Positions 8,251 through 48,686 of a DNA stretch of 48,686 bases are shown piece after piece. Positions within the stretch are counted from its first letter, which is position 1, and each line of letters starts with the position of its first letter. The stretch is from a virus (Duplodnaviria > Heunggongvirae > Uroviricota > Caudoviricetes): IMG/VR virus record IMGVR_UViG_643348546_000001. One strand, 5' to 3'. Under the pieces are notes generated by a model, which did no database searches, was not told the origin of the DNA, and worked only from the letters and a program-made list of their open reading frames with translations. Position numbers and translations under genes: made by a program.

Positions 8251-8439
8251 AACTAAGCCGCCTCGTTGAAGCGACTGAGGTATGAAGTGTTGAGTTGATT
8301 TCAGCTGGTCACACCGACGTTCACGCGTCCGCTTCACCCCTCGCACTCCCCGGAGCCTGCTGAAATTCAAGCTGCGGATCTAAGCGGTCATCGCAACGGT
8401 GAATCAGGTGATTGCCGTATCGTTGTGTTGTTGCGACAT

Positions 8440-8500
8440 GGTGATAATAGCTATTGCTATTGATGATATCAATACTTATTGCTATTGCTAGATGTGTTTT
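8440..8500 (-). promoter_or_regulatory. Putative PL promoter with operator repeats (OL)
   Basis: On the minus strand: -35 TTGATA, 17-nt spacer TCATCAATAGCAATAGC, -10 TATTAT; spacer and flanks carry the TTGCTATTGCT / TAGC-N4-GCTA motifs also found in the cI-cro intergenic region. Confidence 0.55.
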
Positions 8501-8644
8501 GATATTAAATATTTGATAGCAAAAAGAATTAATTTTGTGACTTGCATCGCATAGCGATAACTGAAGCGGGGTTGTGGTGGTTTTTTGAACGGTGTGTGTG
8601 ATGAGGGGAGGCAAAAGAAAACCCGGCACGGTGGCCGGGACGTT

Positions 8645-9157
8645 TTATTTCAAAGAAAAATTATGACTAGCGTATCTTGGAAGAAATTCATATAGTGTTA
8701 ATGTCTTAACGCCGTGAGAAGCAGCCGCATCCGGGATCATTATTCTTTTTTTAGGTTTGCCACCGGATGGTTTCTCATGGGTAATAATAGTATATCCATG
8801 TGTCATCGCATGGGCTATTAAAAAAGCATCTGCTTTTTCATGGCTTGCAAAATCAAACTTTGCCTTTTCGGTAACATCTAATTTAGTTGACCAATTTATT
8901 AACTTTGCATAATTTTCTATTGAACTATGCTCATCTTCGAAGAATGATGATGGTAACTCTTCTTTAATCCATTTACACAATGGATCATCTTTTGCACATA
9001 GTTCTTTTTTTACAGCATTAATGCTATAAATCAGACCATTAATGTGTAAAGCGAGAAGAAAATCCCAAAATATTTTGCAATAATTGAAGTTATATGCAAA
9101 GTTTTTTGCCTCTATGAAGACATTACTATCAATTAAGAATTTTCCATTATGAATCAT
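8645..9157 (-). CDS. PIN-like nuclease-fold protein (DUF4411-like), predicted toxin/effector
   Basis: 170-aa ORF; N-terminal FLIDSNVFIE and later acidic/Thr positions (ADAFLIAHAMTHGYTIITHEK) fit a PIN-like pattern; overlaps the upstream gene's stop by 4 nt; very AT-rich. Confidence 0.6.
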   Translation of the reverse strand: MIHNGKFLIDSNVFIEAKNFAYNFNYCKIFWDFLLALHINGLIYSINAVKKELCAKDDPLCKWIKEELPSSFFEDEHSSIENYAKLINWSTKLDVTEKAKFDFASHEKADAFLIAHAMTHGYTIITHEKPSGGKPKKRIMIPDAAASHGVKTLTLYEFLPRYASHNFSLK

Positions 9158-10293
9158 AGAGATTCTCGTTTTTTATAAAATTCAACAACTGTATCTGCTT
9201 TTACATTTAGCAGTACGCCTGCTTCCCTTAATGGTAATTGTTGAGACATTGCTTTGGAAATTATTATATTCGTAAGTTTTGGACTGTTACGAACAGGTAA
9301 TGTGTTAAAGAAAGAACCACCATTAGATTCTTTTTTGGGCTTATTGTAAGCTTGATCTTTAATTATCTCCAAAGTGTTTCTTTCTATCAAATCTAATTGT
9401 AACGCTTTGATTGCACAAGCGAAATCACTAACCTTAAATAACTTAGAAACCTCTTTTACTCGATAATAATTATTATCGCTGGATGCATTAAGCCAGAAAG
9501 ATTTGAAGAGATTATCAGGCATTAAGATTTCAGCAGCAACTTTATTACAAAAAGATTCTATGTTTTTTTCTGTGTCCCACCCAGAGACTCCATCGACTCC
9601 AAGCCAAAGATGAGCCACCTCATGAAATAATGTAAATACCTGCGCAGATAACGCGTCCGAGCTATTTACAAAAATGATCGGAGCAACGCTATCAGATATA
9701 CAGAAACCACGAAACTCTCGCGTGTCAAGTTTTCTTTTATTATTATTACCCACAACACCATTCTTGAAAACTAATACGCCAGTGTCTTCTATTAATTTTG
9801 CCACTTTAGAAAAATAGCTCTCAAAAGTGACATTTTTTATCTCTTTTTGTATATCAAAATGTATTGTGTTTGCTATGTCTGTAGCAACAACCTTATAATT
9901 TAATTTTCTATTAAATTTAAATTTACCAATAAAATCGAGTGGATCATCATTACCATTTTCTCTTAAATAGTCTTTGTACCACTCAAGTTTATATTCTATA
10001 TCATAGTAAACATCAAAAAAATCTTTTCCTAACTCACGGCTATTTATAGCTTGCCTTAAGTCAGGGATCTTGGGTTTGGCTGGAGTTGGTGGCGTTTCAA
10101 GAAATAAAAAACCGAAAGGGATTCCTCCAATTTTTGCCAGTTTTTCTGCTGCGGATTTACTTACCACTCCGTTAAGAAATTTATTAATCTTTTTGGGCAT
10201 GACTTGGTCAGCAAGAGTTTCGATAGAAACTCCTTGAGAATTTGCTATCCAATCAATCATCTTCCTAGACAATTGAAATTCAACCGCTGCCAT
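9154..10293 (-). CDS. HTH-domain / ImmA-IrrE-family (COG2856-like) zinc metallopeptidase protein
   Basis: 379-aa ORF; HExxH motif (FHEVAHLWLG) in the middle, HTH-like N-terminal segment; AGGTGA RBS 4 nt before the ATG; very AT-rich. Confidence 0.65.
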   Translation of the reverse strand: MAAVEFQLSRKMIDWIANSQGVSIETLADQVMPKKINKFLNGVVSKSAAEKLAKIGGIPFGFLFLETPPTPAKPKIPDLRQAINSRELGKDFFDVYYDIEYKLEWYKDYLRENGNDDPLDFIGKFKFNRKLNYKVVATDIANTIHFDIQKEIKNVTFESYFSKVAKLIEDTGVLVFKNGVVGNNNKRKLDTREFRGFCISDSVAPIIFVNSSDALSAQVFTLFHEVAHLWLGVDGVSGWDTEKNIESFCNKVAAEILMPDNLFKSFWLNASSDNNYYRVKEVSKLFKVSDFACAIKALQLDLIERNTLEIIKDQAYNKPKKESNGGSFFNTLPVRNSPKLTNIIISKAMSQQLPLREAGVLLNVKADTVVEFYKKRESL

Positions 10294-10422: not shown

Positions 10423-11115
10423 CTACCCATGCTTTCTATATGTCTGCGGCATGCTCCCGATGACTTTCCCGAAGATGAACACGCGGTTCATCTCGTCTTT
10501 CTCGATCGGGTCCCACGGTGAGTAGCTCTTGTTATCAGAGATAACCAGCAGCTTATCCTTCATCATTTGCAGGCGTTTTACATGGGCGGTGTCGTCATAC
10601 AGAAACGCATAGATACCATCACCGTCGAAAGATTTAACCGTGATATCAACGAACAGCAGATCACCTGGTTCGATCGTTCCTGACATGCTGTCACCACGCA
10701 CGTTAATGATGCGGATATTTTCCGCCTTCCTGCCATCGAACATGTGACGAGCATCGTCAAACGAGTATTCAACCGAGCGTAGAACTTCTACAAACTCACG
10801 GTTGATTACACCCGGCCCGGCACTGACTTCTATATCAAGAACGTCAATTTTGAAGTATTTGGAATGGCTGACAGCAGGCTTCCCTGATTGTTGACCGTCA
10901 TTTCTCATCGGGCCTATGCCTGAAGAGAGCCATTCTGTTCGAACACCCAATGCATTAGCTATTTCAACAATTTTTGTTGAGCCGCGCGCGTTGCCGCTTG
11001 TCAGTCTCCAGATTGTGGGTTGAGCTACGCCAGACGCCTTTGCAAGAGCGCCTTGAGACATTCCAGATTGTTCCATCGCTAGATTTAAGCGATCAGCAAG
11101 AGTTTCTTTTTTCAT
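10423..11115 (-). CDS. cI: CI-like prophage repressor (HTH + S24 LexA-like autopeptidase domain)
   Basis: Start assigned to the ATG at 11115 (the longer ORF starts with TTG); N-terminal HTH (LADRLNLAMEQSGMSQGALAKASGVAQPTIWRL), C-terminal Ser/Lys dyad context (RGDSMSGTIEPGDLLFVD ... KRL); not lambda cI by sequence; mRNA appears leaderless from PRM. Confidence 0.85.
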   Translation of the reverse strand: MKKETLADRLNLAMEQSGMSQGALAKASGVAQPTIWRLTSGNARGSTKIVEIANALGVRTEWLSSGIGPMRNDGQQSGKPAVSHSKYFKIDVLDIEVSAGPGVINREFVEVLRSVEYSFDDARHMFDGRKAENIRIINVRGDSMSGTIEPGDLLFVDITVKSFDGDGIYAFLYDDTAHVKRLQMMKDKLLVISDNKSYSPWDPIEKDEMNRVFIFGKVIGSMPQTYRKHG

Positions 11116-11225
11116 AAGTTTTAATTTATACGCTTGCGTATTGATGGTCAAAACACGTTTTGCTATTGCTTGGATTAATACGCATTGCTATTATTCATTC
11201 ATTGCAATACCAATAGGAATTGATA
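11116..11225. promoter_or_regulatory. Divergent PRM/PR promoters with operator repeats (OR)
   Basis: PR (plus strand): -35 TTGCTT 11166-11171, 17-nt spacer, -10 TATTAT 11189-11194. PRM (minus strand): -35 TTGACC (11144-11149), 17-nt spacer, -10 TAAATT (11122-11127), placing the transcript start about at the cI ATG. Palindrome TACGCTTGCGTA 11129-11140 and TTGCTATTGCT-type repeats. Confidence 0.6.
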
Positions 11226-11453
11226 ATGACAAATCAAACCATTCAACTCGCAATCAGTATTACAGGCAGTCAAAAACGACTGGCAGATCTATGCGGTGTA
11301 GCCCAACCCACAGTTTGGCGTTGGCTACACGGTGGCGGAATTGATGCCCGCTATGTAATGAAAATTGTCTCAGCCACTGGTGGAAAGATTAAACCAGCAG
11401 ATATTCGTCCCGACCTCGCACCATTGTTTAACGCGAGTAATTCTGCCGCCTAA
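11226..11453 (+). CDS. cro: Cro/YdaS-like HTH regulator
   Basis: ATG at 11226 after AGGA; HTH-like QKRLADLCGVAQPTVWRWLHGG; first gene of the rightward operon opposite the repressor. Confidence 0.8.
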   Translation: MTNQTIQLAISITGSQKRLADLCGVAQPTVWRWLHGGGIDARYVMKIVSATGGKIKPADIRPDLAPLFNASNSAA

Positions 11454-15807: not shown

Positions 15808-15996
15808 TCTACCTTTGATTTTCCATAATCAACCAGCAATAATAATGTCACCGGAGCCTGAACAACATCGGTGACTTCTGCGCTAAACGGGGACGTTTAT
15901 GCGCACATACAATCTAAACTCTCTTTTGCTGTCACAGATGCAGAAATGCACCTGCGATTTTTTGCATCCAGCGTTTGACCTCTGCGGAGGTGAATC

Positions 15997-29604: not shown

Positions 29605-29958
29605 GTGGCTGATTTCGATAACCTGTTCGATGCTGCCATTGCCTGCGCCGATGAAACGATACGCGGGTACATGGGAACGTCAGCCACCATGACATCCGGT
29701 GAGCTGTCCGGCGCAGTAATACGTGGTGTTTTTGATGACCCTGAAAATATCAGCTATGCCGGACAGGGCGTGCGCGTTGAAGGCTCCAGCCCGTCCCTGT
29801 TTGTCCGGACTGATGATGTGCGGCAACTGCGGCGTGGAGACACGCTGACCATCGGTGAGGAAAACTTCTGGATAGACCGGGTTTCGCCGGATGATGGTGG
29901 AAGCTGTCATCTCTGGCTTGGGCGGGGCGTACCGCCTGCCGTTAACCGTCGCCGCTGA
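29605..29958 (+). CDS. FII: Head-tail connector protein FII
   Basis: 117-aa ORF (non-ATG start) matching lambda FII. Confidence 0.93.
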   Translation: MADFDNLFDAAIACADETIRGYMGTSATMTSGELSGAVIRGVFDDPENISYAGQGVRVEGSSPSLFVRTDDVRQLRRGDTLTIGEENFWIDRVSPDDGGSCHLWLGRGVPPAVNRRR

Positions 29959-45790: not shown

Positions 45791-46524
45791 CGTACAAAAT
45801 GTGATGAAAGTAGAGTGGCGTAAGCCACAATATTAAGATATGACAATAGCGAAGAAAAGTAAATAACATTTTATGGACGTTTAATTGTTAATTATAAAAA
45901 CTAGAGTGCCCGATATTGTTTATCTTGCTTTAAAATAATGTACTCAAACCAAATTTTTGAGCTAAAAGCTCAAATAATATAAATGCAATGATAATGTTTA
46001 ATAAGACAATTAGCTTGCTTTGTATTTTCATTTCGGAATACTGTTAAGTAACTTTGATGATCCTAACAATAGATCGGAATTTTCTTAGAGTCAATGGTCA
46101 CTGTTTTTGCTTGCAAAGCAAATGTTTTGGTGGTTATAAGTTGTCTTAATATAGTCACGCATGCAACTTGTTCCATGCGGAGATTAAAGATTGGAATATA
46201 ACGCGAAGATGGAATTAAATTACATTTGCAATAATCAATTTATTATTACTCAATAATTACCGATATTATTATTGTAAATTAATCATTAGAGTGCAAAAAG
46301 AAATGTAACGGCAAAATAAGAGGACGATAGCTGAGAAAAAAGCGTGCTTTCCCAATCTGGGGCAAATCACGTCTGAATGACACCTGAAAACAGGTGGTAG
46401 CCTCAAGAAGGCTTGGAATATTCTTCTTTAATGTTATGTAATTCATTGATTTTTCGTGTACAATTTTAAGACATTTATTCCAAGAGAAATTTTTAACTCT
46501 TTGATTTTTCGACTCTGTATCATC

Positions 46525-46585
46525 GGTCTCGAAAACCGGAGTAGGGGCAACTCTACCGGGGGGTCAAATCCCCCTCTCTCCGCCA
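46525..46585 (+). other. 3' segment (about 61 nt, anticodon stem to CCA-proximal end) of a tRNA-Ser gene, with one T-loop substitution; probable integration-site remnant
   Basis: GGTCTCGAAAACCGGAGTAGGGGCAACTCTACCGGGGGGTCAAATCCCCCTCTCTCCGCCA matches the remembered 3' two-thirds of E. coli serU (CGA anticodon) except GGGGGTTCAAATC to GGGGGGTCAAATC; the 5' acceptor/D-arm is absent. Confidence 0.7.
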
Positions 46586-47169
46586 CTTTATCAATGACTT
46601 ATCTCCCGACTTCCCGCCTTGCTTTTCCTAAACAGAACAATCGTAGAATATTCTTGAAGGGTTAGATCGTCACTGTTTTCTGTTCGATACTGTGACATTC
46701 AGCACTTGATTCGCTATGGATCTGACAGGAAGGTTTTGAGCGAAAATTTGCAGTTATTCAGTCGTTTTCTTATCGGTCACCATTATTCTTTTAGACATTG
46801 ATCCTACAAAGCTGCCGCAAAGTTGGTGGTGGGAACTGAAGTTGCGTAGAGAAGGGGTCAATACCCGGAGGCAAACATGGGCTGGCAAAAGTGTAGCGGT
46901 ATTAGGCGCAGCTATTTAGCCTAGTTATGTTTTATGAAAACTTGATATCATATAAGTGTCTTACTTATTGGCTGTAAATAAGTTTTTCCTAAGGAATTGT
47001 TTCTTGAGTATCATTTGTAACTGTAACGGAATTTATAATCCTTTGCTTTATTGTTACGGTATTTTTTATTACACCCTATTTTTTATGTGGTTTTTTATAC
47101 TGACGTTTGGCAAAGTGAACTTTATATGCATATACTTCATCCTGGTTTCAGTTAAGTTGGGTGGATGAT

Positions 47170-48464: not shown

Positions 48465-48686
48465 GTGCCCATGAGCGGTAAGCGTTATCCCGAAGAGTTT
48501 AAAACTGAAGCAGTCAAACAGGTTGTTGATCGCGGTTATTCTGTTGCCAGCGTTGCAACACGTCTCGATATCACCACCCACAGCCTTTATGCCTGGATAA
48601 AGAAGTACGGTCCGGATTACTCCACTTTTTCATCAAGCCAATCCGCCCACCACTGCATCATTTCTCTGCGCTTATCGAGATACTGA
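48465..48686 (+). pseudogene. IS3-family transposase OrfA, probably disrupted after about 50 codons
   Basis: N-terminal HTH region MSGKRYPEEFKTEAVKQVVDRGYSVASVATRLDITTHSLYAWIKKYGPD is typical of IS3-family OrfA; the remaining about 20 residues are atypical and end at the window edge. Confidence 0.6.

Follow-up and report, generated by a model that had tools for sequence, protein, structure and literature searches.

Which promoters and operators form the genetic switch of a phage, and with what specificity its repressor reads them, is the question raised by a gap of exactly 110 bp (11116-11225) between the divergent cI repressor and cro genes of a 48,686-nucleotide stretch of lambdoid phage DNA (IMG/VR virus record IMGVR_UViG_643348546_000001, Caudoviricetes; the whole stretch is called the window below). 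The evidence supports the view that this gap, together with a second cluster at 8440-8530, is a lambdoid immunity region with a cI protein that joins a helix-turn-helix (HTH) domain to a Peptidase_S24 domain, a divergently encoded small HTH protein in the position of Cro, the rightward and leftward promoters PR and PL, and the repressor-maintenance promoter PRM. We consider it likely that the region operates as a bistable switch in the style of lambda, working like the 434 and lambda switches, with a DNA-binding specificity of its own and a leaderless cI message. The direct evidence consists of the sequence elements themselves, their conservation, their enrichment in the window and their covariation with the N-terminal domain of cI.

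Promoters and operators of the immunity region

The organization of the locus is that of lambdoid phages in several respects: cI and cro diverge, the PRM and PR hexamers stand back to back in a gap whose 110 bp agree with the expected length of about 80-110 bp, operator-like sites are repeated across both promoters of the right operator region (OR), and a second set lies over PL in the left operator region (OL). In Pfam searches the repressor shows an HTH_3 domain at the N-terminus and a LexA-like Peptidase_S24 domain (1.3e-18) at the C-terminus, the domain pair of a lambdoid repressor, and its nearest solved structures are the N-terminal domain of the 434 repressor (E-value 1.6e-5 to 1e-4) and UmuD. 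By likeness to LexA and lambda cI, its cleavage and catalytic motifs would be Ala99-Gly100, Ser143 and Lys180. The Cro protein belongs to the YdaS family, and its nearest structures are all-alpha Cro proteins. In a BLASTP comparison it shares 40% identity with cI over 48 amino acids (aa; E 2e-8), and the recognition helices of the two proteins are nearly identical (GVAQPTVWR in Cro and GVAQPTIWR in cI). The 181-aa protein at the position of cII is a member of the YdaT family (Pfam PF06254, 103.6 bits, cut-off 21), which gives the order of a YdaS/YdaT-type switch, with YdaS in the Cro position followed by YdaT. The features of the two control regions are as follows:

10423..11115, minus strand: cI repressor gene, 230 aa (open reading frame and translation)
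11113..11122, minus strand: seven variable nucleotides, AAAACTT (11122..11116), followed by the cI ATG (11115..11113)
11123..11151, minus strand: PRM, -35 TTGACC (11151..11146), 17-nt spacer, -10 TAAATT (11128..11123)
11128..11141: ORx ('OR3-like'), putative operator ATACGCTTGCGTAT with perfect 6-bp arms, in the PRM spacer and reaching 1 bp into the PRM -10
11153..11166: ORm ('OR2-like'), putative operator ACACGTTTTGCTAT, ending 1 bp short of the PRM -35 and sharing 1 bp with the PR -35
11166..11194, plus strand: PR, -35 TTGCTT (11166-11171), 17 nt, -10 TATTAT (11189-11194)
11178..11191: ORy ('OR1-like'), putative operator ATACGCATTGCTAT, in the PR spacer and reaching 3 bp into the PR -10
11201-11225, plus strand: predicted cro leader, with AGGA at 11215-11218
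11207..11220: possible fourth, weak OR site ATACCAATAGGAAT, overlapping the cro Shine-Dalgarno sequence
11226..11453, plus strand: cro, 75 aa, YdaS family (Pfam YdaS_toxin PF15943, 9.6e-15, 54.6 bits, cut-off 30)
8444..8472, minus strand: PL, -35 TTGATA (8472..8467), 17 nt, -10 TATTAT (8449..8444)
8447..8460: OLa ('OL1-like'), putative operator ATAGCTATTGCTAT, reaching 3 bp into the PL -10
8472..8485: OLb ('OL2-like'), putative operator ATACTTATTGCTAT, overlapping the PL -35 by 1 bp, 25 bp from OLa
8492..8505: OLc, candidate third left operator ATGTGTTTTGATAT, 20 bp from OLb

A sequence-only reading of the window had proposed the hexamers of PRM, a PR facing the other way and an OL promoter with the same -10 hexamer as PR, and all three are present: PRM on the minus strand (11151..11123) with no Shine-Dalgarno sequence before the cI ATG, PR on the plus strand with 17-nt spacing, and TATTAT at 8449..8444 in PL. 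In a promoter scan PRM was the sole promoter-like match on the minus strand of the intergenic region, and PL, which is conserved in relatives, was likewise recovered, whereas PR is absent from the scanner list because its -35 matches TTGACA at only three of six positions. PL and PR have TATTAT in common and are identical in geometry. Transcription from PR is predicted to start at A 11201, which would separate the predicted PR and PRM starts by about 86 bp.

The putative cI/Cro site suggested by these sequences is a 14-bp pseudo-palindrome of the form ATASSNWWNSSTAT; the unit may be as long as 16 bp with its flanks, since four of the five sites have an A before them and all five a T after them. 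Neighbouring operator centres are separated by 25 bp, twice in OR and once in OL, and the site pairs on PR and PL stand in the same register, the proximal site overlapping the -10 by 3 bp and the distal site the -35 by 1 bp, with ORm in the position on PR that OLb has on PL. We scored the window at 48,673 14-mer positions. A symmetric weight matrix derived from the three OR sites alone placed OLa third and OLb sixth, and with a matrix derived from the sites of seven diverged relatives, whose training set did not include OLa and OLb, the six best positions of the window all fell in OR or OL (ORy first, OLa second, OLb third, ORm fifth and the weak site at 11207-11220 sixth). Furthermore, the degenerate pattern ATASNNNNNNSTAT has six matches in 48.7 kb vs 1.48 expected, a number reached in 0 of 100 shuffles; four of the six fall in OR or OL, and all four are operator sites listed above. 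Motif discovery limited to 8380-8640 and 11116-11225, the check that the sequence-only reading had called for, gave 65 14-mers that cross-match between OR and OL with at most three mismatches, well above the mean of 5.2 and the maximum of 19 in 300 dinucleotide shuffles, and the best unbiased seed lay at 11177 in the ORy region.

The motif ranks, the enrichment of ATASNNNNNNSTAT and the cross-matches thus bear out the earlier claim that OR and OL have operator motifs in common, whereas the definition of the operator itself had to be changed. The palindrome TACGCTTGCGTA, which had been noticed in the PRM spacer, is located at 11129-11140. As for the repeats that had been said to recur in both regions, TTGCTATTGCT does occur exactly in OR (11160-11170) and in OL (8479-8489), and with at most one mismatch it has five matches vs 1.09 expected, four of them in OR/OL, with none of 100 shuffles reaching five. 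TAGC-N4-GCTA is present only once, in OL (8448-8459); the motif scan found zero copies in OR, and it is ruled out as a shared motif. TTGCTATTGCT consists of a right half-site, that of ORm or of OLb, and the four bases next to it, which in OR begin the -35 of PR. The unit is therefore better described as the inverted repeat of 14-16 bp than by either repeat.

Beyond OLb, the candidate OLc is weak in the window (rank 44), and the same position holds a strong site in one relative (L002, ATAGCAATGGCTAT) and a moderate one in another (L009, ATAGCAATTAGCAT). A fourth left site, ATAGCAAAAAGAAT (8516-8529, rank 14), was rejected, as an IHF-type core and A/T tract explain it better, although it lies inside the exchangeable OL cassette described below. 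This core, TATCAAATATTTA (minus strand, 8506-8518), and the adjoining A/T-rich tract form a block at 8506-8537, which lies upstream of the predicted start of PL by about 70-80 bp, and a perfect IHF core is kept at 8506-8518 in seven of nine lineages. Lambda likewise has IHF sites upstream of PL. In OR, a perfect palindrome, CAAAACACGTTTTG (11149-11162), has the 6+2+6 geometry of ORx and extends over the PRM -35 and the left half-site of ORm; one haplotype differs from it at one position.

Conservation in relatives and natural exchange of domains

The repressor is widespread. Proteins 95-100% identical to it are encoded by the coliphages PhiR30_1, PhiR68_2, PhiR70_1, 4A7, 4C10, D2, 1W, 3W and Perceval, while the identity is about 86% in the Salmonella phages ST104, SE1 and ST160 and about 82% in Klebsiella phages; the cI-OR-cro DNA of phage BTP1 is 99.2% identical to that of ST104. 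The immunity region is present in 722 of 5,426 complete E. coli genomes, and among the viral contigs of IMG/VR 508 confirmed stretches encode a relative of the repressor, of which 80 were kept, all of them 100% identical. Diverged copies come from prophages of Kluyvera, Citrobacter, Raoultella and Klebsiella. The sequence-only reading was right that the immunity specificity is distinct, whereas it is neither rare nor private, because it is a common immunity type of enterobacterial prophages (E. coli and Salmonella).

A phylogenetic footprint of OR was assembled from 33 distinct haplotypes, representing 88 loci in five genera. Essentially invariant in it are both hexamers of PRM, ORx and ORm, the outer positions of ORy and, in PR, the -10 and the TTG of the -35, with the positions 11146-11169 forming an invariant block of 24 bp; variation is found at 11116-11122, 11143-11146, 11169-11177 and motif positions 5-6 of ORy, to which the natural variation of that site is limited. 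The PRM hexamers are effectively invariant (a single haplotype departs, at 11146), ORx is invariant save one position in one haplotype, and ORm is nearly so. In PR, TTG(C) and TATTAT are conserved and the last two to three bases of the -35 vary. The weak element at 11207-11220 reads ATAC-N5-GGAAT in all lineages, at a distance that is fixed to the cro ATG and not to ORy. ST104, BTP1, SE1 and ST160, as well as 4A7, 4C10, Perceval and PhiR30_1/68_2/70_1, have the same immunity type as the window, with identical promoter geometry and with OR sites that either agree with those of the window or depart from them at one to three motif positions. The sequences of the OL sites differ in the Salmonella, Klebsiella, Kluyvera, Citrobacter and Raoultella relatives (e.g. 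ATAGCAATGGCTAT, ATACGTATTGCTAT and ATAGCATTGAGTAT), and these differing sites still fit the consensus, lie 25 bp apart and stand on a PL of the TATTAT/TTGATA type. The arrangement of two OL sites 25 bp apart was found in all seven diverged relatives.

In BTP1 (L094, NC_042346.1, 589-680; cf. window 11113-11194) ORx reads ATACGCTTGAGTAT, in which the palindrome is broken, and ORy reads ATACTAATTGCTAT. This prophage of epidemic African S. Typhimurium ST313 is reported to have an unusually high rate of spontaneous induction, for which its authors suspected the immunity system (PMC5322425).

Natural recombinants separate the two domains of the repressor. The Kluyvera georgiana relative (L011) has the same N-terminal 70 aa of cI with a different C-terminal domain, and has the same OR. 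Conversely, a Klebsiella grimontii relative (L010) and the coliphages PhiR34_1 and PhiR5_1 combine the C-terminal domain of the window's cI with another HTH (recognition helix SQAAIQKIE), and their OR holds ACAAC-N4-GTTGT sites in place of the window's operators. The operator motif therefore follows the DNA-binding domain of cI and not its C-terminal domain. The same is seen at OL, where one segment is exchanged as a block:

8437..8527: OL specificity cassette, about 91 bp, containing PL and the left operators, exchanged in phages whose cI N-terminal domain differs

In the alignment with PhiR34_1 the flanks are near-identical and the cassette is swapped for one with ACAAC-N4-GTTGT sites in the exact register of OLa and OLb. 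The operators of this sister immunity type (L093 2640-2770 and 1650-1740; L010) fit the 434 pattern ACAA-N6-TTGT.

The proposed switch and competing explanations

From these observations we infer binding, occupancy order, cooperativity, OL-OR looping, activation of PRM and the exact transcript start, and propose the following scheme. In a lysogen, cI dimers would bind the 14-bp pseudo-palindromes (16 bp with flanks) of the consensus (A)ATASSNWWNSSTAT(T). The 25-bp site pairs would cover the -10 and -35 of PR (11178-11191 and 11153-11166) and of PL (8447-8460 and 8472-8485), so that their occupation would turn both early operons off. The dimer on ORm would abut the -35 of PRM and may stimulate this promoter, and ORx, in the spacer and -10 of PRM, could serve both negative autoregulation by cI and the shut-off of PRM by Cro, of which it is likely to be the preferred target. 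The start of transcription from PRM would be the A of the cI AUG or the base preceding it, so that the maintenance message would have neither a leader nor a Shine-Dalgarno sequence. Cooperative binding and looping between OL and OR over about 2.7 kb are plausible because the C-terminal domain resembles that of HK022 cI. Self-cleavage of cI at Ala99-Gly100, stimulated by RecA, would let PR and PL fire and induce the prophage, and Cro, a YdaS-family protein with the same recognition helix, would then occupy the same operators.

Several points weigh against this scheme or parts of it. The PR -35 is weak (three of six) and partly variable. Lambda OR2 is centred at -42, whereas 44.5 bp separate the centre of ORm from the predicted PRM start downstream of it; on account of this distance and of the already near-consensus -35 of PRM, TTGACC, activation of PRM is uncertain. 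The left half of ORm (ACAC) departs from the consensus, and the site overlaps the perfect palindrome at 11149-11162, which could act on its own. The A of the cI ATG is the eighth base after the -10 where it is the seventh in lambda, and the start could be the preceding T, which would give a leader of 1 nt. Since most relatives have OR sites of identical sequence, it is mainly OL that supplies independent support from sequence. Finally, the literature that we reached contained no binding, footprint or transcription-start data for this specificity.

The region might also have features that go beyond the template of lambda and 434, such as a fourth site at 11207-11220, two classes of half-sites, or variants that tune spontaneous induction (e.g. 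in BTP1), which we regard as doubtful. The half-sites themselves do differ, in that ATACGC forms both halves of the PRM-occluding site and ATAGCA(A/T) occurs in nearly all lytic-promoter operators seen, with two of 35 relatives' sites reading ATATCAA instead. If the classes are real, they could let cI and Cro, with nearly the same helix, rank the sites in opposite order.

It is improbable, in our judgement, that factors other than cI and Cro use some of the conserved blocks, such that CAAAACACGTTTTG or the element at 11207-11220 binds another protein, or acts in the cro mRNA, as an extra input to the switch. Both are conserved across genera, the palindrome shares its geometry with ORx, and the element at 11207-11220 holds its distance to the cro ATG. 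Nevertheless, the PRM -35, ORm and the PR -35 fully cover the invariant block at 11146-11169, the GGA of the downstream element is the Shine-Dalgarno sequence of cro, and no candidate for an additional regulator was identified.

For the cI message, the position of the PRM -10 predicts a start at A 11115 (or T 11116), which would yield a leaderless or near-leaderless mRNA; an A that follows a pyrimidine is a favoured context for transcription start. The distance of 7 nt from the PRM -10 to the cI ATG is kept in all 33 haplotypes, while the bases in it differ (AAAACTT, GAATATT, TGAGATT, AAAAACC and others): 11116-11119, 11121 and 11122 vary in one to seven of the 33, and 11120 is constant. All haplotypes begin cI with ATG, i.e. 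AUG and not GUG or UUG, and none of them has a GGAG- or AGGA-like Shine-Dalgarno sequence before it. The same layout is found in relatives of other specificity, where the upstream sequence is unrelated and a -10 hexamer stands 6 nt before the ATG (TACATT-TGGACT-ATG in PhiR34_1 and TAAATT-GAAATG-ATG in L010). In BTP1, cI and bstA are reported to form one operon transcribed from a single start site (PMC7067206). We predict that the BTP1 cI start is position 379527 of FN424405, on the minus strand, which is position 29813 of NC_042346.1.

Hardly likely is the alternative that cI is translated from a leadered message in a longer frame beginning at TTG 11151, the start given to the BTP1 gene in the D23580 annotation (726 nt), and that TTGACC/TAAATT is not the maintenance promoter. 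The frame is indeed open upstream to this TTG, the D23580 and BTP1 annotations both place the start 36 nt upstream, and promoter-like hexamers are near chance level in the region overall (13 vs 10.3 expected). However, the 12 additional codons coincide exactly with the block of -35, operator and -10, and these elements explain their conservation; TTG 11151 has no Shine-Dalgarno sequence before it, other annotators place the start at the ATG, the relatives of other specificity keep a -10 hexamer before the ATG in unrelated sequence, and the minus strand of the intergenic region has no second promoter-like site. Annotations of this kind recur: cI is annotated with an extension of 36-66 nt upstream, over the operators, in PhiR34_1 (L093 1963-2718) and BTP1 (c1, L094 1-627), and a 41-aa 'Cro' is annotated across the operators in PhiR70_1 (L001 4219-4344). 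The longer cI annotations look like gene-caller artefacts and the 41-aa 'Cro' like an annotation artefact, probably because the true cI ATG has no Shine-Dalgarno sequence.

Least of all do we favour the reading of the operator as a direct repeat, TTGCTA/TTGCT, with TTGCTATTGCT and TAGC-N4-GCTA as tandem half-sites in place of a 14-bp inverted repeat: the exact copies and enrichment of TTGCTATTGCT and a 6-bp periodicity in 8447-8489 speak for it, yet the second TTGCT after OLb is lost in relatives (TTAGTTG in PhiR70_1, TTTAATG in L006, TAATTG in L002) that all keep the left half AATAC 14 bp away, the second TTGC in OR is the PR -35, TAGC-N4-GCTA is confined to OL, ORx is invariant and palindromic without any TTGCT, and the 434 repressor, the closest structural relative of cI, binds 14-bp sites as a symmetric dimer, so that we rejected the direct repeat as not conserved.

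Relation to known switches and neighbouring genes

The inverted-repeat operators invite comparison with four studied systems. 434 operators are 14 bp long. Like them, the sites in the window are of 14 bp, conserved in their outer 4 bp and looser in the centre, three of them lie in OR between divergent PR and PRM, cI and Cro have very similar recognition helices, and the cI N-terminal domain is closest, among solved structures, to the DNA-binding domain of the 434 repressor. The outer half-site is ATA(C/G) here and ACAA in 434, however, and the recognition helix is AQPTIWR here and QQSIEQ there; the 25-bp spacing of centres, the HK022-like C-terminal domain and the YdaS-family Cro are further differences. 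With lambda the locus shares its gene order and logic: PR and PRM diverge, with predicted starts about 86 bp apart; OR has three operators, each promoter containing one of them; PL has an operator set as well; accessory genes occupy the stretch from cI to OL (the rexAB slot); no Shine-Dalgarno sequence precedes cI; and the C-terminal domain of cI is a self-cleaving S24 domain. In contrast to lambda, the operators are of 14-16 bp and not 17 bp and are unrelated in sequence, the PRM -35 is near-consensus, a YdaT-family protein occupies the cII slot, and the A of the ATG is the eighth and not the seventh base after the -10.

Operators of the lambda type (17 bp, TATCACCGC..GGTGATA with at most three mismatches) were not found within 8380-8640 or 11116-11225, and the 434 pattern ACAA-N6-TTGT is likewise absent from OR and OL, its one match in the window (10326) lying outside both and being at chance level. 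The repressor of HK022 is 40% identical to that of the window, and the claim of the sequence-only reading that the repressor is not that of lambda and has a distinct specificity is upheld. The identity with HK022 cI is concentrated in the C-terminal domain, which serves oligomerisation and cleavage. Over the N-terminal 60 aa the alignment is poor, and the recognition helices are different; as the N-terminal domain cannot be aligned beyond a generic HTH, the specificity differs from that of HK022. HK022 immunity, suggested by the ST104 annotation 'similar to HK022 cI', was accordingly rejected, only the C-terminal domain being related. HK022 cI (for which, with its operators, see Carlson & Little 1993, cited in PMC8053113) binds cooperatively and loops OL to OR (PMC8053113). 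The distance from OL to OR is about 2.7 kb in the window and about 0.7 kb in HK022.

CP-933P, with PaaR2, YdaS and YdaT, is the nearest experimentally studied switch that has YdaS and YdaT partners, and shares with the window a YdaS-family Cro and a YdaT-family protein at the cII position. Its repressor gene diverges from ydaS across about 100 bp, and a PL-like promoter carries the same repeats (PMC8630535, PMC9986795). Leaderless messages have been established experimentally for lambda cI and for PaaR2, in the latter case by 5' RACE, N-terminal sequencing and mass spectrometry (PMC8630535). PaaR2, a repressor of 15 kDa, has no S24 domain, and a toxin-antitoxin pair comes after it (PMC8630535). 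The repressor of the window, in contrast, has a full S24 domain and is not of the small PaaR2/RacR type (CP-933P, Rac), and the four 18-bp palindromes of CP-933P (consensus GTTTAGTAA) are unrelated in specificity.

We conclude that this is a very common and, apparently, previously unmapped immunity specificity of the lambda and 434 kind, whose mechanism is unsurprising. The literature searched contained no published operator or start-site map for this immunity type, and full-text searches with the operator sequences gave unrelated matches only. The map comprises the 14-bp consensus, five firm sites, the promoter registers, the exchangeable 91-bp OL cassette and the predicted leaderless start. 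It opens to test the grouping of common coliphages and Salmonella phages by superinfection immunity, the construction of virulent or clear mutants and the basis of BTP1 instability, and explains recurring annotation errors (N-terminal extensions of cI and false 'Cro' genes over operators). It brings no new concept to the paradigm of lambda and 434; its use lies in annotation and in work on prophages of the BTP1 type.

The wider gene order around the two control regions is as follows:

left part, rightwards: bet, gam, kil, an N-like open reading frame, then the promoter/operator cluster near 8440-8530
right part: two accessory genes (8645-10293, minus strand), cI, the 110-bp gap, cro, the 181-aa gene, and O- and P-like replication genes

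Salmonella and E. coli phages of the same immunity type have different accessory genes in the interval from cI to OL. In the window this rexAB slot holds two overlapping genes, which encode a DUF4411 (PIN-like) protein and a protein with an HTH and an M78/ImmA-IrrE-type metallopeptidase (HEVAH motif). Neither is present in any record of the phage collection, and the slot in relatives holds HipA/HipD, GevT/GevA or BstA. The inverted repeat bound by YdaT of CP-933P, TTGATT-N6-AATCAA, has an exact copy at 15815-15832, in the intergenic gap ahead of a NinB-like open reading frame, and a copy with one mismatch across the cro start codon (11220-11237) that is without conservation in relatives. We did not use this repeat as a switch element, neither copy being kept in relatives and YdaT recognition helices being variable (PMC9986795). 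Finally, four matches to the IHF core consensus lie within 370 bp at 46233-46601, which is probably the attP region.

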